Positions 1-10,753 are shown, numbered from the stretch's first letter. The stretch: 64,000 bases of DNA from an uncultured Eubacteriales bacterium (GCA_964652895.1 CAZZCH010000001.1:4814-68813), one strand, 5' to 3'. The notes: generated from the sequence alone by a model not told the origin. Program-made: numbers and translations.

Positions 1-786
1 CCGGACGCGGACCGAAAGGAGCTTCTGCATGAGCCGCCGCATCACCGCGGGGTCGTCGTTGACGCCCTTGAGCAGCACGGTCTGGTTCCCCAACGGGATA
101 CCGGCGTCGGCCAGCATATTCAGGGCGCGCGACGATTCCGGCGTGATCTCGTCGGGGTGGTTGAAATGGACGTTCACGTAGAGCGGGTGGTACTTCTTGA
201 GCATGGCCACGAGCTTTTCGGTGATCCGTTGAGGCAGGACGCACGGGACGCGCGTTCCGATGCGGATGATCTCGACGTGAGGGATGGCCCGGACGGCCTT
301 GACGATCGCCTCGAGCTTGCGGTCGCTCAACATGAGCGGGTCGCCGCCCGAGATGACGACGTCCCGGATCTCTGAATGGTCCCGGATGTAGGCCAGGCCG
401 TCCCCGATGTAGCGGGGGTGGATCTTCGACGGATCTCCGACCATCCGCTTCCGGGTGCAGAAGCGGCAATACGAAGCGCAACTGTGCGAAACCAGGAAGA
501 GGCAGCGGTCGGGGTAGCGGTGGACGATGCTCGGCACGGGCGAATCCTCGTCCTCGAGGAGGGGGTCCGCTTCCCCGGTGTTTTCCCGGAGTTCGGCCGT
601 GTCGGGCACCATCTGGCGCCACAACGCGTCGCCGCGCTCCTTGATCAGGCCGGCGTAATACGGCGTGATCTGGATCTTAAAAACGCGGGCGATCCGGCGG
701 ACGTCCTCGACGTCCAACCCGAAACGTTGGGCGATCTCCTCCGGTTTCCGGAGACTGCCCTGAAGCAATCGTTGCCAGTCGTCCAT
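1..786 (-). CDS. kamA: L-lysine 2,3-aminomutase (radical SAM, KamA/AblA family). Partial: 3' end runs off the window start.
   Basis: I translated the minus strand myself. It reads MDDWQRLLQGSLRKPEEIAQ...ITPYY...SPVPSIVHRYPDRCLFLVSHSCASYCRFCTRKRMVGD...VISGGDPLM...HFNHPDEIT...GNQTVLLKGVND. The CxxxCxxC cluster and flanking motifs match lysine 2,3-aminomutase nearly position by position. The supplied ORF track misses it because there is no stop inside the window. ATG at 786. Confidence 0.85.
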   Translation of the reverse strand, partial: MDDWQRLLQGSLRKPEEIAQRFGLDVEDVRRIARVFKIQITPYYAGLIKERGDALWRQMVPDTAELRENTGEADPLLEDEDSPVPSIVHRYPDRCLFLVSHSCASYCRFCTRKRMVGDPSKIHPRYIGDGLAYIRDHSEIRDVVISGGDPLMLSDRKLEAIVKAVRAIPHVEIIRIGTRVPCVLPQRITEKLVAMLKKYHPLYVNVHFNHPDEITPESSRALNMLADAGIPLGNQTVLLKGVNDDPAVMRRLMQKLLSVRVR

Positions 787-803
787 CTCCTCTGTACTCC
801 TCG

Positions 804-1277
804 TCAACGGAAATATTTCGCGTATATGACGCGGTCGTCCCCGGCCCGGTAATAATCCGGGACCCGGGCGACTTCCTTATAGTCAAAATCGATGTAAAAC
901 TGTCGCGTGCCGCGGTACTTCGGCTGCGACGACGTCTCGATAATGATCATCCGGCCGGCGAGCCGCCGGACCTCGTCCTCGACCCAGCGGATGAGCGCCT
1001 TGCCCCGCCCCCGGCCCTGCTCGCTCGGCGCGACGGCCATCCAATAAATGTCATAGGCGTCCTCGGCCAGCGGCGTCGGTCCCCAGGTCATATAGCCCAC
1101 AGCGTCCTTCCGGTCGTTCTCGGTGACGACGATGCGATAGTCCTTCTGCTCCGGATCCTCGAGATAGACGTCGATGAGCTCCTCGGCCACGTCGACCTCG
1201 GCGGGCGTGAAAAAGCCGGTCGCCCGGATGAGGTCCATGACCGGCCCCTTATCACGCAGTTCCATCGGCCGGATCAC
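804..1277 (-). CDS. GNAT family N-acetyltransferase, a candidate beta-lysine N-acetyltransferase (AblB/YodP-like by context)
   Basis: 157 aa with an acetyl-CoA binding motif (QGRGRGKALIRWVEDEV). It lies immediately upstream of kamA in the same orientation. GTG start at 1277 with a GAAAGG SD. An alternative ATG is at 1265. Confidence 0.7.
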   Translation of the reverse strand: MIRPMELRDKGPVMDLIRATGFFTPAEVDVAEELIDVYLEDPEQKDYRIVVTENDRKDAVGYMTWGPTPLAEDAYDIYWMAVAPSEQGRGRGKALIRWVEDEVRRLAGRMIIIETSSQPKYRGTRQFYIDFDYKEVARVPDYYRAGDDRVIYAKYFR

Positions 1278-2283
1278 GGACGACCTTTCTCTTCATGGCA
1301 TTGTCGATCATCGTGCCCCAAAACGAGGCGTAGGCGATCCCGGCCGCTTTGAGGGCCCGGGCGTAGCCGGCGTTGGTGCTGATGTCGGGATTCGGATTGA
1401 CTTCGAGGATGAACGGCCGGCCCTTGGCGTCCATCCGGAAGTCGATCCGGGCATAGTCCCGGCAGCCCATGATCCGGAACGCGTCGGCGGCCAAACCCTG
1501 GAGCTTGGCGCGAAGATCTTCGTCGATGGGCGCCGGGCAGACCGGGGGAGTCTTCTGATAGAGCGGATCGTCTTCGAACCACTTGGCTTCGTAACCCAGG
1601 ATGCGCGGCAGGCCCTTGGGCATGGCCGAGAAGTCGATCTCGGAGACCGGCAGGGGTGTCACGGCGCCGTTCTCCAGGACCGAGACGTTGAACTCCCGGC
1701 CGTCGATGAACGCTTCGGCGAGGACCGGCTGCTTGTAATTATCGAGACAGCGCCAGACCTGGCGGCGGAAGGCCTCCTCGTCACGGACGACGGAGTCCGG
1801 GTAGATGCCCAGGCTGGCGTCCTCGGTGTTCGGCTTGACGATGAGGGGGAATTTCAGCTCGAGGGGCTCCTCCCCCGTCAACATGAGCTGGGCCGGAGCC
1901 GTCGGCAGGCCGGCCGCGCGCAGGACGGCCTTGGCCTTGAACTTGTCCTGGCAAAAGGCCAGGGTCTTGGATGTGCTCCCGGTGAACGTGAGGCCGAGGA
2001 GCTCGAAGATGCCGGCGACATTCGACTCCCACTGCGGCCGGCCGTAATACCCTTCGCAGAGGTTGATCAGGGCGTCCGGGTTGAGCTCCCGGACCCGCCC
2101 CAGGAAATGGAGGAGGCTCTTCTGGAGCGGAATGAGCGTCACGTTGTAGCCGCCGGTGCGGATGGCGTCGTGGGCTTGCTGGGCCATCTCGGCCACGGAC
2201 TCTTCGGATAGACGTTCCCCCATCGCCGTCGGTCTCGGTTCGTAGGCGTTGAAGACGATGGCTATGTTAGGGGCAGGAGTCAT
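1252..2283 (-). CDS. ATP-grasp ligase, D-alanine--D-alanine ligase-like (copy 2)
   Basis: 343 aa. Ddl-family hallmarks: N-terminal CQDKFKAK, a central ATP-grasp fold, and C-terminal ARIDFRMD...ILEVNPNPD. The ATGA overlap with the upstream paralog suggests translational coupling. Confidence 0.75.
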   Translation of the reverse strand: MTPAPNIAIVFNAYEPRPTAMGERLSEESVAEMAQQAHDAIRTGGYNVTLIPLQKSLLHFLGRVRELNPDALINLCEGYYGRPQWESNVAGIFELLGLTFTGSTSKTLAFCQDKFKAKAVLRAAGLPTAPAQLMLTGEEPLELKFPLIVKPNTEDASLGIYPDSVVRDEEAFRRQVWRCLDNYKQPVLAEAFIDGREFNVSVLENGAVTPLPVSEIDFSAMPKGLPRILGYEAKWFEDDPLYQKTPPVCPAPIDEDLRAKLQGLAADAFRIMGCRDYARIDFRMDAKGRPFILEVNPNPDISTNAGYARALKAAGIAYASFWGTMIDNAMKRKVVRDPADGTA

Positions 2284-3389
2284 GCACGATCCGCGTGGAC
2301 CACCGGCCGCTCGCTCGCCGCGGGCCGGATGCGCGTGGGACGGAGGCCGTACCGTTTCGAGGCCTCCTCGACGACCTTGTGGATCAGGTCCGAATAGGAA
2401 TACCCGGCCGTCCGGGCCGCCTTGGGCAGACAGGAATTATCCTCGGGATTGGGTAGGATGCCCGGCAGCGGATTGACTTCGAGGATGTTGGGTTCCCCTT
2501 TTTCGTCGAGCCTGATGTCGACACGGCACCAGTCCCGGATGCGGAGCACGGCGCAGGTCCGTGTGATGTAGCTCTCAATCTTGGCCTTGAGCACGGGGCT
2601 GACGGGCGCCGGGCACTTGAAGATTTTCAGGGGTTTCTCCCGCGTGTCCCAGATCCACTTCGCTTCGTAGGAATAGATCGGCGCCGCCCCGGAGGGCAGC
2701 TGGCTGTGATCGATCTCTACGATGGGTAGGATCTCGTGGTTTGGCGTGTTGCCGAGGACGCCGACGGTGAACTCGCGGCCGGATAGGAAGCGCTCGACGA
2801 TGACCGGCTGGTTGTAGGTCGCAATGACCTCCTCCACGCGCTCGTAGAGGTCGCCCAGGGTCTGGATGAGGGAGTTGTTCTTGATGCCTTTGCTCGATCC
2901 CTCGAAGAGCGGCTTGACGATGGCCGGGAGACGGACGCCGGACGGGATGTCGGCCGCGGACTCGACGATCCAGAAAGCCGGGTTCGGGATCCTGTGGTAG
3001 GACAGGATCTCCTTGGCCCGCGACTTGTCGAGGCAGAGCCCGAGGGTCAGCGGGTCGGAGCCGGTGTACGGGATGTCCAGCATCTCGCAGATCGTCGGGA
3101 TGTGGGACTCGCGGTTCGGGCCGACGACGCGTTCGGCGATGTTGAAGACGAGATGGGGGCGCTGGCGCTTCAGGCGCGCGTAGGCCTTCTCATCGGACTC
3201 GATGAAAACAACTTGGTGCCGTTCCTGGAGCACCCGCCCGACGGCCGCGATCGTTTCTTCCGAATCGCATTCCGCGAGCAGATCGACTGGCGATGGGGGT
3301 TCGTCTTCCTCGTCGCGTCGTTCGTCGGGGCGATGAGAGAGCGTCGCTTCCATCCCCTCTTTCGAACTGAAAAGCAATGCTACTTTCAT
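2280..3389 (-). CDS. ATP-grasp ligase, D-alanine--D-alanine ligase-like (copy 1)
   Basis: 369 aa. Motifs: CLDKSRAKEIL, VKPLFEGSSKGI, CRVDIRLDEKGEPNILEVNPLPG. It is a paralog of 1252..2283. AAGGA SD upstream of the ATG at 3389. Confidence 0.75.
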   Translation of the reverse strand: MKVALLFSSKEGMEATLSHRPDERRDEEDEPPSPVDLLAECDSEETIAAVGRVLQERHQVVFIESDEKAYARLKRQRPHLVFNIAERVVGPNRESHIPTICEMLDIPYTGSDPLTLGLCLDKSRAKEILSYHRIPNPAFWIVESAADIPSGVRLPAIVKPLFEGSSKGIKNNSLIQTLGDLYERVEEVIATYNQPVIVERFLSGREFTVGVLGNTPNHEILPIVEIDHSQLPSGAAPIYSYEAKWIWDTREKPLKIFKCPAPVSPVLKAKIESYITRTCAVLRIRDWCRVDIRLDEKGEPNILEVNPLPGILPNPEDNSCLPKAARTAGYSYSDLIHKVVEEASKRYGLRPTRIRPAASERPVVHADRA

Positions 3390-3671
3390 CGCTCGATTCC
3401 TTCTTTCATCTCATGCCTTCAGATTTTTTGATGGCCGTGATCACTTTATTCATTTTCATTTATAGACCATTCTAACTAAATGTCAAGTTTTTTTCTCGCC
3501 GATCGACCACTTTTATTTGTAGGACGAAGAACAGTCCACACCATTAGTAGTGTCGTTTCGTCCCGTCGTGCGCGTTTCTCAAAACCGCCGGATCCCCCAA
3601 ATGACAAAGAAGAACAGCACGGAACCGGCGGCGTGGCGAGGGTGGAATTCATCGCGGGATACCGTTGATCT

Positions 3672-4922
3672 TTACCTGAAAAAAAGGAGAGTGGTGACAA
3701 CGTAGAGCGGGATGAGGATGGCGAAGGAGTAGGCCATATAGCCGAAGAACGAGGGCATCTTCAGTTTGTATTCCTCGGCGATGACCTTGACCATGAAGTT
3801 CGGGCCGTTGCCGATGTAGGAGTTGGCGCCCATGAAGACGGCACCGGCGCTCATCGCCTTGAGGAAGATCGTTGGGATGCCCATCACGTCGCCGTTGAGG
3901 CCGAGGCCCTGTCCCATGGAGAAGAAAGCCAGATAGGTCGGCGTGTTGTCGAGGAAGGACGAGAGGCAGCCCGTGGCCCAGAAGAACTGCCACGGTCGGG
4001 TGATGCCGAGCGCCGCCGCCCGGGCGTTGAGGATGAGCAGGGCCGGCACCATCGTGATGAAAATGCCGGCGAAGAGGATGGCCACCTCCAGAATGGGGTT
4101 GTAGTTGAACTTGTTGTCGGCCCGGCACTGGCGCTTGGTCGTCAGCAGGGACGTGACGGACATGAGGATGAAGACGCCTTCGCGGCGCGGGAAAGGCAGG
4201 AACATACCGGCGATGACCCCGGCGATCCAGAGGAAGTTGATGGTCCCAGTCATGTGCAGGGGGACGACGCGGCGCCGGTCGCGGATGAGGTCGCGGCTCT
4301 CTTCCTTACGGTACTGCAAGCTGTCGAAGAGGTAGAACATCAGCAGCACACCGCCGACCATGACGGCCCACATGGGCAAAAGCCGGAGGGTCCAGAAGAA
4401 CGGCACGCCCTTGATGAAGCCCATGAAGAGCGGCGGATCGCCGAGCGGCGTCAGCAGGCCGCCGATGTTGGAGACGAGGAAGATAAAGAAGATCGGAACG
4501 TGGAGCGTATGCCGGCGCTCGGAGTTCGTCTGGAGGAGCGGCCGGATGAGGAGCATGCTCGCCCCGGTCGTACCGATGAAGTTGGCCAGGACGGCGCCGA
4601 CAAGGAGGAACAGCGTGTTGACCTCGGGGGTCGCTTTGAGGTCTCCCTTGAGGACGATGCCGCCGGAGATGATGAACAGGGCCGTGAGAAGGAGGAGAAA
4701 GGAAGCGTAGTCCTTCATCGACAGGACGAGTTCGTGCGGTGCCTGGAACAGAAAGTAGACCGCTATGGGCAGGGACCACAGGAAGGCGACGAGGGCCTTG
4801 TTCTTGTGGTTCTCCCAGAAGTGCGGCGCGCGGAGAGGAAGGAAGGCGATGGACAACAGAAGTCCCGCGAACGGGACTACGGCCCACAGCGACAGCGATT
4901 GACCGAGTTCATGCGCGTTCAT
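3672..4922 (-). CDS. ArsB/NhaD-superfamily permease (putative Na+/H+ antiporter NhaD-like)
   Basis: 416 aa polytopic membrane protein. It has repeated halves with the GxxP / NTPTYLAF-type motifs typical of the ArsB/NhaD ion-transporter superfamily. Confidence 0.6.
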   Translation of the reverse strand: MNAHELGQSLSLWAVVPFAGLLLSIAFLPLRAPHFWENHKNKALVAFLWSLPIAVYFLFQAPHELVLSMKDYASFLLLLTALFIISGGIVLKGDLKATPEVNTLFLLVGAVLANFIGTTGASMLLIRPLLQTNSERRHTLHVPIFFIFLVSNIGGLLTPLGDPPLFMGFIKGVPFFWTLRLLPMWAVMVGGVLLMFYLFDSLQYRKEESRDLIRDRRRVVPLHMTGTINFLWIAGVIAGMFLPFPRREGVFILMSVTSLLTTKRQCRADNKFNYNPILEVAILFAGIFITMVPALLILNARAAALGITRPWQFFWATGCLSSFLDNTPTYLAFFSMGQGLGLNGDVMGIPTIFLKAMSAGAVFMGANSYIGNGPNFMVKVIAEEYKLKMPSFFGYMAYSFAILIPLYVVTTLLFFR

Positions 4923-4999
4923 GAGATTCGTATTGTAGCGGAAGAGCAGTTTTTTTCAAGAGAAATCGGGGACCCCATGTTCCCCCCCCTATCGGACAC

Positions 5000-5860
5000 T
5001 CACGGCATAAAAGCCGTGGAGAGAAAGTACGCCCGCGCCGGCACCTTCCGTCTCGCCGCGCGCGTTTCGATGGGACGAAGCAGGGACCGATCGTCGCTCG
5101 GCGGCGTCAGGAAGAGGAGTGCCGCGCCCGCGGTCCAAAGTTCTTCGAGGACCTCGAGCGGCAGGCCGCGCTCGACGCGGACGACGGCCCGGACTCCGGC
5201 CGCCGCGCCGGCGCGGGCGGTCCCGGCAGCGAGCCCGGCCCATGTCTCCTCCGCGGAACCGCCGTCGGTCAGATGGACCCATGCGCCCCGGCCCGCCGGC
5301 GCACCGAGCTCCGGCGCGAGCGGTCCATGATGGTAATAGACGAAATAGCCCCGGCCGGATCTTGACGCGGCCGCGAGCTCGGCCAGGAGTACGAGGTCGC
5401 GCCGCGCGTTCAGGTTCGAAACGTGGAAATCCATCCCTCGCGCCAGAAGGTCCTCGAGCGTTTGGAGGGGAATACCGCCGGTTCCCTCCGCCGACGGAAG
5501 CGGGCCGTTCCAGAACACCGACAAGAACGTCCGGGAAGTCCGGCAGGCTTCGAGGAGGATCTGCCATTCGTCGGCCCGCGGACGGGCTTCATCCGAAGTG
5601 AGGACGCGGACGCCCTCGCCAACGAGGGCTTCGAGATCGGTGAGGCCTAGCCGACCGGTGTCGAGCAGGCTCAGCCGGATGCGCCGGCGCCGACCGTAGC
5701 GGGCCGCGTCGAGCAGGGCTTCGTAGTCGAACTGGTCGTCGCGGATGACGAGGTCCTGCCGCGTCCGGACGCGGTCGAGGAGTTCGTAGGTCCCGACGAC
5801 CCCGGCGATACCCTTTTCGATCGGATGTTCACTCATTTTTCGAATTTCAAGATATACCAT
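5000..5860 (-). CDS. hypothetical protein
   Basis: 286-aa ORF in the same orientation as the downstream permease. Codon bias is coding-like. I recognise no motif. Confidence 0.4.
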   Translation of the reverse strand: MVYLEIRKMSEHPIEKGIAGVVGTYELLDRVRTRQDLVIRDDQFDYEALLDAARYGRRRRIRLSLLDTGRLGLTDLEALVGEGVRVLTSDEARPRADEWQILLEACRTSRTFLSVFWNGPLPSAEGTGGIPLQTLEDLLARGMDFHVSNLNARRDLVLLAELAAASRSGRGYFVYYHHGPLAPELGAPAGRGAWVHLTDGGSAEETWAGLAAGTARAGAAAGVRAVVRVERGLPLEVLEELWTAGAALLFLTPPSDDRSLLRPIETRAARRKVPARAYFLSTAFMP

Positions 5861-5951
5861 CCCGGCCCGGGGGTGTCAACCACACGTCAACTGCGGTCGT
5901 ATTGAAAATCCGGGCCGGCTCGATTATCATCGTGTTCGGAGGAAAGCCGCG

Positions 5952-6647
5952 GTGACATCCTGCATGGTCCTGTTTTCGGGCGGGCTCGATTCGACGACCG
6001 CCCTGGCCTGGGCCCGGACCCGCTATGACCGGGTCCACGCCCTGACCTTCGACTACGGCCAGCGGCACCGCGTCGAGGTCTCTCTCGCCCGGAAAGCCGC
6101 CCGCCGGTTGGGCGTCCCCTGTACCGTCCTCAAGGTCGACCTTCGGCAGATCGGCGGGTCGGCGCTGACCGACCCGCTCATCCCTCTCCCCCGCTCCACC
6201 CGGCCGCCGAAAAAGACGCCCGGCCCTCCGGCGACCTACGTCCCGTTCCGCAACGGGATCTTCCTCGCCCTGGCCGCGGCCTGGGCGGAGGCGCGCGGTG
6301 TCCAGGACCTCGTCTGCGGCTTCCATGTGGCCGACTCCCCCGACTATCCGGATACAACGCCGCGTTTCGTTCGGGCCATGGAGCGGGCCATCCGCGAGGG
6401 GACGAAGGCCGCTTTCGGCGGACCGCAATCGCGCGTCCGCGCGCCGCTTGTCGGCCTGGGCAAGACGGACATCATCCGGAACGGCCTGGCTCTCGGCGTC
6501 GACTATTCCTATTCGGTCTCCTGTTACTCCGGAAACGAGGCTCCCTGCGGGACCTGCTCGGCCTGTCGGCTTCGCGCCAGGGCCTGGAAGGCCGTCGGCC
6601 GCGAAGATCCCCTCCTCGTCCGTCTTCGAAAGGAAGGAAAACGATGA
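5952..6647 (+). CDS. queC: 7-cyano-7-deazaguanine synthase QueC
   Basis: N-terminal SGGLDS PP-loop and C-terminal CGTCSACRLR zinc motif. GTG at 5952 with a GGAGG SD; an alternative ATG is at 5964. Confidence 0.9.
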   Translation: MTSCMVLFSGGLDSTTALAWARTRYDRVHALTFDYGQRHRVEVSLARKAARRLGVPCTVLKVDLRQIGGSALTDPLIPLPRSTRPPKKTPGPPATYVPFRNGIFLALAAAWAEARGVQDLVCGFHVADSPDYPDTTPRFVRAMERAIREGTKAAFGGPQSRVRAPLVGLGKTDIIRNGLALGVDYSYSVSCYSGNEAPCGTCSACRLRARAWKAVGREDPLLVRLRKEGKR

Positions 6648-6991
6648 GCTGGACACTCAAGGTCCGTGACAAGTTCTCGGCCGCCCACTATCTCAAGGAA
6701 TACCGGGGCAAGTGCGAAAAGATCCACGGCCACACATTCCAGGTCGAGGTCGAGATCGCCGTCCGCGAGCTCGACCGGATCGGCATCGGAGTCGACTTCA
6801 TCGAGGTCAAGAAGGTCCTGGCCGCGGCGCTTCCTGACCATTCCCTTCTCAACGAGGTCTTCCCGTTCAATCCGTCCGCGGAGAACATCGCCCGCCATCT
6901 CTACGGCGAGCTAAAAAAAACCTACCCGGTCAAGGCGGTCACGGTCTGGGAATCCGAGGATGCGTCGGCCTCCTACGCTGAAGACGACTGA
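6644..6991 (+). CDS. queD: 6-carboxy-5,6,7,8-tetrahydropterin synthase QueD
   Basis: 115 aa with the CEKIHGHTF motif (PTPS/QueD family). ATGA overlap with queC. AGGAAGG SD. Confidence 0.85.
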   Translation: MSWTLKVRDKFSAAHYLKEYRGKCEKIHGHTFQVEVEIAVRELDRIGIGVDFIEVKKVLAAALPDHSLLNEVFPFNPSAENIARHLYGELKKTYPVKAVTVWESEDASASYAEDD

Positions 6992-7589
6992 GATCTTCGC
7001 CTCGGTCCAGGGCGAAGGCCTGCGCCAGGGCGAGCCGACGATCTTCGTCCGCCTCTCCGGATGCAACCGCCGCTGCGCCTTTTGCGACACGAAAAAGGCC
7101 TGGCGCGGCGGCCGGGAGATGCCGGTCGAAAGGATCGTGAAAGAAGTCCTCCGGCTCCGGCGCGGCTTCCCGGCCTCCTGGGTTTGCCTGACCGGGGGCG
7201 AGCCCCTGGCCCAAGACGTCCGCCCTCTCCTGCGGCGCCTCCACGAAACAGGACTCAAGGTCCAGGTCGAAACGAACGGAACGTTCCCCCCGGAACAAGG
7301 GGCGGATTGGATCACCGTATCGCCCAAGCCGCCGGATTATGACTTCCACCCCGGATTCCCGGAGCGGGCGCGCGAAGTGAAGCTCGTGGTTTGCCGGACG
7401 CTCACGCTCGACGCCGTCAGGAATGTGAGAAGATCCTTCCCTCGGGAGGTCCCCCTCATCCTTCAGCCGCAGTCGAACGCTCCCTGGAGCCGAAAAAAAG
7501 CCCTGAAGATCCTCGAAGACGCCTATCGGACGGGACTATCCAATATCCGCGTGTCCGTCCAACTCCACAAGGTCTACGGACTGCGCTAG
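6960..7589 (+). CDS. queE: 7-carboxy-7-deazaguanine synthase QueE (radical SAM)
   Basis: EIFASVQGEG...FVRLSGCNRRCAFCDT matches the QueE signature. It overlaps queD by 32 nt. The exact start is uncertain. Confidence 0.85.
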   Translation: MRRPPTLKTTEIFASVQGEGLRQGEPTIFVRLSGCNRRCAFCDTKKAWRGGREMPVERIVKEVLRLRRGFPASWVCLTGGEPLAQDVRPLLRRLHETGLKVQVETNGTFPPEQGADWITVSPKPPDYDFHPGFPERAREVKLVVCRTLTLDAVRNVRRSFPREVPLILQPQSNAPWSRKKALKILEDAYRTGLSNIRVSVQLHKVYGLR

Positions 7590-7673
7590 GCTGGTCCATT
7601 CATAACAACGCCGACTCGTCGGCTAATTTCAAGCTCGTCAAAGACAGCCCGGTGATTCTGTGAATAGAGCAGG

Positions 7674-8582
7674 CTAATCCGACTTGGCGGCGTCCAGGAC
7701 GTCGTTGCCCCGCTTCCGCTCGAAGAGCCTGTAGCCGGACCGCGTCAGGTAGACGCCGAACAAGGTGATGGCCGTGCCGACGGCCTGGAGCATGGTCAGC
7801 CGCTCGCCGAGCGCGACCCCCGCGAAGAGGATGGCCAGGACGGGGGTCAGGTTGCCGTAGACGCCCGTCTTGGAGCTCCCGACCGCCTTGACGGACTGGT
7901 ACCAGAGGACGAAACAGAGGAATATGGCCACCAGGCCGGAATACAGGATGGCCCCCCAGCCTTGCCAGGGGATCCGCGCCCAATCGACCGCGGCCAGCCC
8001 CTTCGCCGCGAACGGCAGATAGACCAGGGTCCCGGCGATCGTCCCGACGGCGGCCAAACGGAACGCCGAATTCCGCCCCAAGACCGGTTTCGAGAATACG
8101 GTGTAAGCGGCCCAGAAAGCGTTGGCGATGAGGATCATGACCGCCCCACCCATGACTTCCCAAGTCAAGACGAGACCCCCGTTCTCTCCGGAGACGACGA
8201 GAAGAAAGCCGGCCACGGAGATGGCGATGCCGGCCCATCCGGCAAGCGAGATCCGTTCTTTCCCGACCGCGGTGGCCAGTAGGGCGATGAAGATGGGGCT
8301 CGTCCCCATGACGACGGAGGCCGTCGATGCGTTCATCCGGGCCAGGGCCTGGATAAAAACGATCTGATAGCCCGTGATGCCCAACAGCCCGAGTCCGGCC
8401 GCCTTCCACCCATCCCCCTTCCGGGCCAGGGAGAACTTGCCCGGGCTCACCACGAGCACGGCCAGATAAGCGATCGAAGCCAGGGCCAGCCGGACGGCAT
8501 TGAAGCCGTGGGGCGGCATCGTCCTCAGTCCGATTTTTAGGACCGAGACGTTGATGGCCCAGAGCAGAACGGTCAGGAACAT
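7674..8582 (-). CDS. EamA/DMT-family transporter
   Basis: Ten predicted TM helices in two EamA-like halves. I place the start at the internal Met (MFLTVLLWAINVSVLKIGL) at 8582. The 353-aa ORF in the track carries a non-membrane N-terminal extension. Confidence 0.65.
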   Translation of the reverse strand: MFLTVLLWAINVSVLKIGLRTMPPHGFNAVRLALASIAYLAVLVVSPGKFSLARKGDGWKAAGLGLLGITGYQIVFIQALARMNASTASVVMGTSPIFIALLATAVGKERISLAGWAGIAISVAGFLLVVSGENGGLVLTWEVMGGAVMILIANAFWAAYTVFSKPVLGRNSAFRLAAVGTIAGTLVYLPFAAKGLAAVDWARIPWQGWGAILYSGLVAIFLCFVLWYQSVKAVGSSKTGVYGNLTPVLAILFAGVALGERLTMLQAVGTAITLFGVYLTRSGYRLFERKRGNDVLDAAKSD

Positions 8583-8783
8583 CAACAGGTCGGTCCGGCC
8601 CAACCGCGGGCCGTTCGTCGACACGCTCAACGCCGCCAATCCCGTTTTTTTTGAACGGGGTGGACGGGGCTCAAGTTCAACCCTGAGCATACCCGGGGCT
8701 TCGGACCGGAGATGCGAATGGGTTAGCTGGAACACTTCGGCTTTTCCTCGGGGGGGGAATTCGCGGAATGGCGAGAGCGGCCT

Positions 8784-9182
8784 TTAGCGCCCGCGGGTCC
8801 GGGGGCGGGGGTAACGGGCCTCGACGACCGACCGGAGTCCGCCGCGCGGGTTGAACTCGCCCCTGACAACGGCGCTCGACGGGCGGCAGGCCCGAACGAT
8901 GTCCTCGAGGACCCGGTTGACCACGTTCTCGTAGAAAATGCCCAGGTTGCGGTAGGCCAGGAAATACCCCTTCAGGGACTTGAGTTCGAGGACGCTTTTA
9001 GCGGGGACGTAGCGGAGGATGATCGTCCCGAAATCCGGCAGTCCCGTCTTGGGGCAGACCGAGGTGAACTCCGGGCACTCGATGGCGATCTCATAATTCG
9101 GGAACTGGTTGGGGAAGGTTTCGAGGGCCGGCAGTTTCGTCTTGAGGCCGGCCTCGGCCTCCCTGTCGATGTATCGCGCCAT
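8784..9182 (-). CDS. queF: NADPH-dependent 7-cyano-7-deazaguanine reductase QueF (type I)
   Basis: ECPEFTSVCPKTGLPDF, which includes the catalytic Cys, and the ELKSLKGYF QueF motif. ATG at 9182 preceded by a GAGGAG SD. The track ORF begins 4 codons upstream at a GTG. Confidence 0.85.
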   Translation of the reverse strand: MARYIDREAEAGLKTKLPALETFPNQFPNYEIAIECPEFTSVCPKTGLPDFGTIILRYVPAKSVLELKSLKGYFLAYRNLGIFYENVVNRVLEDIVRACRPSSAVVRGEFNPRGGLRSVVEARYPRPRTRGR

Positions 9183-9605
9183 GGAACTCCTCACTAACCT
9201 CTTGAAGCTCTACGGACTTACGTCCGTGGAATCCCGCGGAGGGGATTGAAGATGGATATGATACATGAAAGCCGCGGCCTCGACAACGTGGGCCTCGGGG
9301 AGAACCGGCACGAACTCCAACGATTATCGCTCGTGTCGTTCCTTTCGTCAGCCGCTATACGCCGCCCGTATTGGCTGTGATGGGGACCACCCATATCCCC
9401 CGGCCCCCGGGAACCAGTCCCGGCGGTTCCCCCATCCTGCTTCGAGAGAAGCGGGATAGGCCCCCTACGCGTTGTGGATTGGCAATGGCTATCTCTCAGC
9501 CCGGCCCTGAGGCGGCCGCGGCTTTCCTGCGAGGATGGTTTCTTTGTGGTCAGGGAAATCCTATAATAGAAGGAGAGCTATATTCCTTTAGGGAGAGAGC
9601 TGCAT

Positions 9606-9809
9606 ATGAGCGAGTGTCAGAGCGCGAAAAACAAGGCCCGGTGCAACTGCAGTTGGGAGCCTTGCGACCGCAAGGGGCTCTGTTGCGATTGTCTGGCTTA
9701 TCACTGGAGCCTTCGGGAGCTCCCGGCCTGCCTGTTCCCAGATGCCGAGGAGAAAACCTACGACAGGTCCCTCCGGAAGTTCATCGAGATCTACAAAGGG
9801 AAGGCCTGA
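9606..9809 (+). CDS. small cysteine-rich protein (8 Cys in 67 aa), unknown function
   Basis: MSECQSAKNKARCNCSWEPCDRKGLCCDCLAYHW... A strong GGGAGAG SD sits 8 nt upstream. Its TGA overlaps the ATG of the next gene (cTGATGg), which suggests translational coupling. Confidence 0.5.
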   Translation: MSECQSAKNKARCNCSWEPCDRKGLCCDCLAYHWSLRELPACLFPDAEEKTYDRSLRKFIEIYKGKA

Positions 9810-10753
9810 TGGGCGAGCGCCGCCATATCTACGGCCCCGTGCCCTCGAGGCGCCTGGGCTTCTCCCTGGGGGTGGACATCATCCCCTTCAAGACCTGCAC
9901 CCTGGACTGCATATATTGCCAGCTCGGATCGACGCCGAAAACCGTCAGCCGGAGGGGGAGCTGGTTTCCCCCCGGGGAGATCCTGGCCCAGATCAAGGAG
10001 GCCGTGGAATCGGGGCAGCAGATCGATGTCATCACCTTCTCCGGCTCGGGCGAACCGACCCTCAATCGGGACATCGGCCGCATCATCCGGGCCATTAAAA
10101 AGATGACCCGGATCCCCGTCGCCGTCCTGACCAACGGGACCCTGCTCACCCGGAAAGAGGTGCGGCGGGACCTGGCCGCCGCGGACATCGTCGTGCCCTC
10201 GCTCGACGCCGCTCACGGTAACTTGTTCCGCCGCGTCAACCGGCCCAACAGGGCTCTCGATTCCAAAAGGATCATTGACGGCCTGGTCCGCTTCCGGAAA
10301 GAATTCCGGGGCGAGATTTGGCTCGAAGTCATGCTCATCAAGGGCGTCAACGATTCCCCGGCCCACATCGAAGCCCTCCGGAGGGCCGCGAACAGGATCC
10401 GCCCCGACCGCATTCAGCTGAACACGGTCGTCCGACCGCCGGCCGACGTCAAGGCGAAGCCGTTGAGCCCCAGAGCGATGCGCAAGATCCGCGATGCCCT
10501 CGGCCCCAGGGCTGAGATCATCGCCTCGTTCGAAAGGCGGGGACAAGCGCCGGCGGCCGGCGACTTCGAAGCGGCCCTCCTGACCGCTGTTGGGCGCAGG
10601 CCCATGACAGTCGAGGATATTTCTCTCTCCCTGGGCCGCCACCGCGACGAGGTCCTCAAAGCCCTGTCCTCACTCCTCGGCCGGCGGGAAGTCCGGAAGA
10701 CCGTCCATGGAGACAAAACGTACTTCGCTCGGGCACGCAGCCGGCTTTACTAG
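9808..10753 (+). CDS. radical SAM enzyme (MoaA/NifB-like core, no SPASM/twitch domain) with a C-terminal winged-helix-like domain
   Basis: MGERRHIYGPVPSRRLGFSLGVDIIPFKTCTLDCIYCQLG has a CxxxCxxC motif 30 aa from the start. A GSGEPTL glycine-rich SAM motif follows. The C-terminal ~70 aa is Cys-free and wHTH-like. The track's 460-aa ORF is an N-terminal extension in the same frame. Confidence 0.75.

Follow-up and report, generated by a model that had tools for sequence, protein, structure and literature searches.

The first 4922 positions of a 64 000-nucleotide stretch of DNA from an uncultured Eubacteriales bacterium (GCA_964652895.1 CAZZCH010000001.1:4814-68813; the whole stretch is called the window below) contain five minus-strand genes. 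Four of them form an operon encoding two ATP-grasp ligases (A and B), a small GNAT acetyltransferase and a KamA-family radical SAM aminomutase, and this operon, which probably makes a new beta-lysine-based small molecule, is the subject of this analysis. Ligase A, the product of the first gene (2280-3389), has 369 aa and a Pfam Dala_Dala_lig_C domain (E = 1.7e-32); its paralogue B (1252-2283, 343 aa) carries the same domain (E = 2.2e-29). The GNAT gene (804-1277; Pfam Acetyltransf_7 and Acetyltransf_1) encodes 157 aa if translation starts at GTG 1277, or 153 aa from ATG 1265. The kamA gene is cut by the left edge of the window, which holds its 5' part (1-786, 262 of 370 codons); the full gene, encoding 370 aa, lies at L001:12604-13716, L001 being the source contig, recovered by an exact-protein match. 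The names of near-identical proteins assign the window to Candidatus Aminicenantes (Acidobacteriota). The fifth gene encodes a permease and lies 5' of the operon.

The A and B genes overlap by 4 nt (ATGA). The B and GNAT genes overlap by 26 nt with the GTG 1277 start and by 14 nt with ATG 1265, the choice of the gene caller; homologues likewise start with M-x-I-R, which supports GTG 1277. A 17-nt spacer with a ribosome-binding site (GAGGAG) separates the GNAT stop codon from the kamA ATG. An earlier reading made without database searches (the sequence-only reading) had located the four operon genes, the permease and the intergenic gap correctly. Of its description of the junctions, the 4-nt overlap stands, the ~26-nt overlap stands if GTG 1277 is the start, and the statement that the operon has no intergenic gaps fails on the 17 nt before kamA.

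The gene that follows kamA on contig L001 is convergent, and the transcription unit therefore comprises four genes. This convergent gene (L001:13709-15877, minus strand, beyond the left edge of the window) encodes a 722-aa protein with weak, partial matches to N-acetylmuramic acid 6-phosphate etherase and SIS domains (89 bits against a cut-off of 168), and its position 3' of kamA is kept in Aminicenantes loci only.

We examined the distribution of the operon in a genome scan with one genome per species, using a 10-sequence alignment of ligase A. Close relatives of ligase A are encoded by at least 589 species genomes, and the protein has 1031 representative clusters at E ≤ 1e-30. The best 80 loci were searched with the window proteins, and 72 of them had enough downstream sequence to be informative. 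The order A-B-GNAT-KamA on one strand, with the GNAT as third gene, was found in 60 of these 72 loci, from about 12 phyla. By their record titles, the carriers belong to Aminicenantes/Acidobacteriota, Verrucomicrobiota, Kryptonia, Calditrichaeota, Bacteroidota, Ignavibacteriota, Lentisphaerae, Planctomycetota, Desulfuromonadales, KSB1, Marinimicrobia, Chlorobiaceae (L080) and Gemmatimonadaceae. They are mostly anaerobes. Apart from the named isolate Desulfovibrio mangrovi, which has a related version with kamA first, the loci are metagenome-assembled, those labelled Ignavibacterium album, Desulfuromonas or Chlorobiaceae among them.

Identity to the window proteins across phyla is 57-72% for KamA and 49-58% for A, and the recurrence of the same four-gene order in so many phyla goes far beyond chance. 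Besides A, B, the GNAT and KamA, no gene family recurs across phyla at the best 80 loci, and exporter, non-ribosomal peptide synthetase (NRPS), efp and mur/dcw genes are not consistently linked to the block across loci.

Natural gene fusions provide strong evidence, of the Rosetta-stone kind, that the four proteins act in one pathway. Among representatives of the A family, KamA is fused to an ATP-grasp ligase in both domain orders (P0134, P0207 and P0223) and an ATP-grasp ligase to a GNAT (P0259 and P0270); fusions of two ATP-grasp domains also occur, several of them A followed by B in BLAST comparisons with the window proteins. By the same comparisons, the KamA-fused ligase is of A type and the GNAT-fused ligase of B type, a pattern that suggests, tentatively, that the partner of KamA is A and that of the GNAT is B. 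Synteny and fusions (KamA+A, B+GNAT, A+B) agree with the view of the sequence-only reading that the four genes are one functional unit.

KamA belongs to the KamA family (TIGR00238, 299.9 bits; cut-off 199.2). Its best-scoring equivalog model is that of AblA (TIGR03820), on which it reaches 469.3 bits, below the cut-off of 525.4, the match stopping near model position 361 of 417. Scores were also below cut-off on the models for glutamate 2,3-aminomutase (429.6 against 650 bits), arginine 2,3-aminomutase (349 against 600) and EpmB (234.9 against 369.3). Seven operon-linked KamAs from other phyla reach 441-473 bits on the AblA model, all below 525.4.

Aligned to Clostridium subterminale lysine 2,3-aminomutase (PDB 2A5H, E = 7e-113), KamA keeps the CxxxCxxC cysteines C103, C107 and C110 as well as R112 (R134 in 2A5H), D270 (D293), D307 (D330) and K314 (K337); D270, D307 and K314 fall outside the window and were read from the full gene in L001. 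In the published 2A5H structure, Asp293 and Asp330 bind the epsilon-ammonium group of the substrate, Arg134 binds its carboxylate and K337 is the pyridoxal phosphate lysine. Because all of these are kept, the likely substrate of KamA, judged from the alignment, is lysine.

The alternative that KamA is an EpmB, serving beta-lysylation of EF-P, had been raised as one that would undo the pathway proposal, and the evidence speaks against it. No tRNA-synthetase-like gene that could be epmA occurs among the called neighbours of the operon, and tblastn with E. coli EF-P found no efp in the 64-kb window or within ~7 kb around the block at ~85 loci. The operon resembles EpmA/EpmB in that a KamA-family aminomutase would make beta-lysine for ATP-dependent ligation, but it differs in the low EpmB score of KamA, in the lack of a LysRS-like EpmA or efp nearby and in the expected chemistry, which would be the acyl-phosphate route of ATP-grasp enzymes and not adenylation.

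Ligases A and B are 35% identical to each other, and public annotation names both 'D-alanine--D-alanine ligase', a label that is probably wrong. On the NCBIfam Ddl subfamily model NF002378, the scores of 167.6 bits for A and 150.7 bits for B stay short of the cut-off of 243, and both proteins also fall below that of TIGR01205 (245.65). Their sequence matches among solved structures are to Ddl/VanA-type enzymes only, plus one weak match of B to an L-amino-acid ligase. An AlphaFold2 model of A, of moderate quality (predicted local distance difference test score, pLDDT, 69.6) and used for fold assignment and not for pocket geometry, gave a list of best 50 Foldseek matches in the PDB that are all Ddl/VanA-type ligases.

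Residues were compared in 53 sequences of A type and 55 of B type, with E. coli DdlB as the reference. The equivalents of K97, K144, E180, E187, K215, R255, D257, E270 and N272 are invariant in both types, and with them the conserved ATP, Mg and catalytic positions of Ddl. At the pocket positions H63, Y216 and M259 both types carry Glu, Trp and Arg (E86, W245 and R293 in A itself). The two types part at the carboxylate clamp: A-type sequences keep S150, G276 and S281, the last being the clamp residue, whereas all 55 B-type sequences show S150 to Ala, G276 to Asp, S281 to Ala and L282 to Gly, and have lost the clamp. With the catalytic set intact and the pocket residues changed, A and B are probably active ligases with specificities other than D-alanine, and the acceptor site of B probably differs from that of A.

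By profile score, fold and pocket residues, A and B are Ddl-like enzymes and not housekeeping Ddl, which upholds the Ddl-type classification of the sequence-only reading. They share with Ddl/VanA the fold, the Pfam domain, the nearest structures and all residues for ATP, Mg and catalysis, but differ in the sub-threshold scores, in the three replaced pocket positions and, for B, in the loss of S150, G276, S281 and L282. They also differ in context, as tandem paralogues in an operon with KamA and a GNAT and not in a cell-division or cell-wall cluster. The scores below curated cut-offs and the replacement of H63, Y216 and M259 led us to reject an ordinary housekeeping Ddl role for either protein. 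A search of the window with DdlB matched the two operon genes and no other.

An 809-aa protein in the collection, P0267, joins an ATP-grasp unit of the L-amino-acid-ligase type (ATP-grasp_4 + LAL_C2) to a Ddl-like domain of the A/B family. This fusion is a hint that relatives of A and B build short peptides.

The GNAT matches no NCBIfam family at cut-off, its best score being 32.9 bits on RimI against 86.4. Its closest solved relative is PDB 2R7H (E = 2.7e-33), a protein of uncharacterised function; it is weakly similar to diaminobutyrate acetyltransferase and has the size of SpeG or EctA. By these matches it is not an acetyltransferase of the AblB/YodP type. The sequence-only reading had taken kamA and the GNAT gene for the known ablAB/yodOP pair, an identification that does not survive for a 157-aa protein with no curated family and 2R7H as its nearest solved structure; a 'known ablAB pair plus extras' is therefore the wrong framing for this operon.

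We gathered relatives of the GNAT, and then their contigs, with the 2R7H sequence as query. In Desulfovibrio mangrovi, a Woeseia metagenome-assembled genome (MAG) and a third genome, the order is kamA-A-B, followed by the GNAT gene and one further gene, whose mutual order varies. This fifth gene encodes 578-585 aa, with a GNAT-like N-terminal domain fused to a domain of the histone-deacetylase (HDAC) family (L087:9629-11386, L089:7268-9004, L052:9340-11076, L073:4963-6690 and L050:12658-14388). It adjoins the block in at least six loci from several phyla, namely in these three genomes and in a Calditrichaceae, a Desulfuromonas and one further locus. It matches no NCBIfam model and is absent from the window. 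Its HDAC domain is closer to acetylpolyamine amidohydrolases (APAH; E = 1e-66 to 1e-56) than to protein deacetylases (~1e-33), and this likeness favours a small-molecule substrate with a primary amine.

We put at about even the chance that the operon is a self-contained cytoplasmic pathway to a small beta-lysine-derived amide, namely an N-acetylated beta-lysine di- or tri-(pseudo)peptide. KamA would convert L-lysine to beta-lysine (3,6-diaminohexanoate). A, through Ddl-type acyl-phosphate chemistry, would form a first amide bond involving beta-lysine, and B would form a second. The acceptor of B is probably not a simple alpha-amino acid, because the Ddl carboxylate clamp is missing there, and might be a side-chain or terminal primary amine. 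The GNAT would acetylate a remaining free amine, and in some lineages the APAH-like enzyme would take the acetyl group off again. Its likely role would be that of a compatible solute or of a cytoplasmic cation resembling polyamines, and not that of a secreted antibiotic. The gene set with its conservation and fusions, the intact catalytic residues, the changed pockets and the missing linkage to efp, mur, exporter or precursor-peptide genes are observed, and in this scheme we infer the order of steps, the co-substrates beyond lysine, the product and its physiological role.

The component families are all known, and the pathway itself is uncharacterised. Full-text searches of the literature library open to us turned up no description of the combination, in line with the view of the sequence-only reading that these four enzymes are not a described pathway. 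A new small molecule is probable for this reason together with the conservation of the gene order across phyla.

The same logic is known for the solute N-acetylglutaminylglutamine amide (NAGGN), made by Ngg (GNAT + ATP-grasp) and AsnO. There too, acetylation is combined with ATP-grasp ligation to yield a capped dipeptide solute, and GNAT + ATP-grasp fusions are found in both systems. Here, in contrast, the ligases are of Ddl type and a radical SAM aminomutase supplies a beta-amino acid; no AsnO-type amidotransferase was found in the 21-kb locus, where the sole Asn_synthase match is a weak one on QueC.

Several observations weigh against the pathway in this form. In about nine MAG loci from Thermodesulfobacteriota or 'Deltaproteobacteria', equally similar copies of A and B occur without a neighbouring kamA (L033:2837-7449 and L072:4314-9508, with similar arrangements in L036, L049, L055, L069, L075 and L079, and a ninth contig, L062, that begins inside A). 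A and B of these loci are 52-57% and 40-47% identical to the window proteins, respectively. Eight of them have a gene for a deoxyhypusine-synthase-family protein and/or a pyruvoyl arginine decarboxylase (PvlArgDC) 5' of the ligases, and four an arginase-family gene; in L033, these genes overlap by 4 nt. On the 3' side lies a GNAT gene in L049, L055, L069, L072 and L075 and a methyltransferase gene in L036 and L062. Perhaps, therefore, A and B do not strictly need beta-lysine, which may be one amine partner among several. Any substrate beyond lysine is a guess, and the pocket arguments rest on sequence alignment because the model of A is of only moderate quality. In addition, many carriers come from groundwater and freshwater sediments, as their record titles indicate, which weakens a purely osmolyte role.

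The two variant contexts, the APAH-like fifth gene and the kamA-less loci, both speak for a small molecule that is reversibly N-acetylated and for substrates bearing primary amines at their ends. They point to polyamine-like chemistry. The likeness to polyamine acetylation and deacetylation consists in the APAH-like accessory gene, the small SpeG/EctA-sized GNAT and the putrescine/homospermidine-type genes of one lineage. The differences are that the amine would here be a carboxylated diamine (beta-lysine), that two amide ligases are added, and that the window lacks the APAH-like gene.

Four other explanations were weighed against the small-molecule pathway, and one of them gives beta-lysine a macromolecular destination. 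The ligases would attach it, or a polyamine-derived arm in some lineages, to a protein (EF-P-like or ribosomal, in the manner of RimK) or to the side chain of a peptidoglycan precursor, and capping of the terminal amine would fall to the GNAT. Such a scheme would suit the alternation of KamA and the deoxyhypusine-synthase-family/arginase-family/PvlArgDC trio beside the same ligase pair, since beta-lysine and the aminobutyl group are, to our knowledge, the two donors known for modification of EF-P and eIF5A. ATP-grasp ligases can modify both proteins (RimK) and peptidoglycan precursors (the D-aspartate ligase Aslfm), and the strong conservation of KamA and A across phyla is also in its favour. 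We consider it unlikely, given that efp is missing from the window and from the neighbourhoods searched, that no mur or dcw genes recur, that the accessory deacetylase is of the acetylpolyamine, hence small-molecule, type, and that A retains the clamp by which Ddl holds the carboxylate of a free amino acid. Moreover, in Desulfuromonas and Syntrophus a separate yjeK adjoins efp and an 'ablA'-type gene is present in addition (PMC2821294). A more specific form, which we hold to be quite improbable, makes the ligase pair a new ATP-grasp system for attaching a long cationic arm to a macromolecule (the peptidoglycan stem or else a ribosomal or EF-P-like protein), the arm stemming from beta-lysine in KamA lineages or from a polyamine/aminobutyl donor in deoxyhypusine-synthase lineages, and the GNAT and the APAH-like enzyme capping and uncapping the terminal amine; if true, it would be a third route to modification of the EF-P/eIF5A kind. 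Also doubtful is a scheme in which A and B oligomerise beta-lysine, alone or on a polyamine primer, into a short polycation serving as polyamine surrogate or nitrogen store, with the GNAT and the APAH-like enzyme tuning its charge by reversible acetylation. The operon does supply just one special monomer, beta-lysine, the invariant extra Glu (at H63) and Arg (at M259) of both ligases could suit an additional amine and a displaced carboxylate, and the links to polyamine genes and to the APAH-like gene fit. Two distinct, conserved ligase types suggest two different bonds and not one repeated, however; we know of no precedent for processive Ddl-type enzymes, and the known beta-lysine oligomers, the streptothricins, are made by NRPS-type enzymes.

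[quoted passage not shown] The likeness is real as far as a KamA-family aminomutase lies beside a GNAT and AblA is the best model for KamA. N-epsilon-acetyl-beta-lysine has been reported in green sulfur bacteria, and a Chlorobiaceae locus (L080) carries the block. Here, though, KamA stays below the AblA cut-off in every lineage tested, and the GNAT is of the small 2R7H type, matches no AblB-type model and is about half the size of AblB. Chance co-transcription also sits poorly with the conserved A-B-GNAT-KamA order, with ligases that form an inherent part of the operon and, in both types, even occur as fusions with KamA or a GNAT, and with their scores below Ddl cut-offs and altered substrate pockets. 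An ablA/ablB pair is annotated in the genome of Pelobacter carbinolicus (Desulfuromonadales) as Pcar_1401/1402 (PMC3543383), a point in favour of osmolyte synthesis; these genes may be this same operon, a correspondence that is only inferred. Finally, the same number and kinds of enzymes recall graspetide or microviridin-like ribosomally synthesised and post-translationally modified peptides (RiPPs), with ATP-grasp macrocyclases and the acetyltransferase acting on a precursor peptide and KamA modifying a lysine in it. Microviridin clusters indeed have two ATP-grasp ligases and a GNAT (MdnB, MdnC and MdnD). We regard this as extremely improbable for the present operon, in which the 700 nt upstream of A and the 700 nt downstream of KamA hold no small open reading frame (ORF) conserved across phyla, a short leader ORF is not conserved even among Aminicenantes, the ligases are of Ddl type and not RimK-like as graspetide enzymes are, and no ABC exporter or protease is linked.

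The operon is a compact, easily cloned four-gene unit. Knowing the product would define a new specificity class of Ddl-type ligases, would clarify whether bacterial 'ablAB' calls really indicate osmolyte synthesis and might uncover a connection of beta-lysine with polyamine metabolism. The probably wrong 'D-alanine--D-alanine ligase' label would meanwhile mislead cell-wall and metabolic reconstructions.

Upstream of the operon, a gap of 282 bp (3390-3671; described earlier as ~280 bp and found to be so) separates ligase A from the permease gene and has a GC content of ~0.49-0.56 against ~0.63 in its flanks. It holds a sigma-70-like operon promoter, read from the sequence on the minus strand, with TTGACA at 3486-3481, a 16-nt spacer and TATAAA at 3464-3459; a consensus scanner missed it, the sixth base of the -10 hexamer being A. 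In an alignment of nine Aminicenantes loci, this promoter is nearly invariant and the rest of the gap diverges, with indels, save for two boxes 5' of it that are also nearly invariant: CGACACTACTAATGGTG (3555-3539) and CTACAAATAAAAGTGGTCG (3522-3504). Both boxes contain CTAC...GTGG-like half-sites, and the segment 3504-3555 may be an operator, an UP element or the binding site of a regulator. A riboswitch or other structured leader was considered and rejected, as the leader 3' of the promoter is not conserved and an Rfam scan of positions 1-10000 at E ≤ 1 gave no match.

The permease (3672-4922, minus strand, 416 aa) had been described as NhaD/ArsB-like, which is not borne out. Its family is CitMHS_2 (Pfam PF16980, E = 4.8e-151; 'putative citrate transport'), and neither NhaD nor ArsB is among the families that it matches in Pfam or NCBIfam. 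It has a promoter-like site of its own (4959-4932) and adjoins the operon only in the closest Aminicenantes, those with a ligase A at least 81% identical, and on both grounds we rejected it as a member of the system. The permease is a separate transcription unit and a lineage-specific neighbour, and the operon, with its own promoter, is probably regulated. An 8-bp GC stem followed by UUUU lies 3' of the permease stop codon; its fold is no better than that of shuffled sequences (z = 0.88) and the terminator scanner was silent, which leaves a weak suggestion of an intrinsic terminator. A gene at 5000-5860 (minus strand), for a 278-286-aa protein without a Pfam or NCBIfam match, travels with the permease 5' of the operon, again in the closest Aminicenantes only.

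Further along the window lies a queuosine-precursor set with overlapping ends, comprising QueC (5952-6647), QueD/PTPS (6644-6991) and a QueE-like radical SAM protein (6960-7589), all on the plus strand. It is followed on the minus strand by an EamA-family transporter (7674-8735) and QueF (8784-9194). Of all Rfam families, only a cobalamin riboswitch (RF00174, 14127-14314, plus strand; 98 bits against a gathering threshold of 31.5) passes its threshold anywhere in the 64-kb window.

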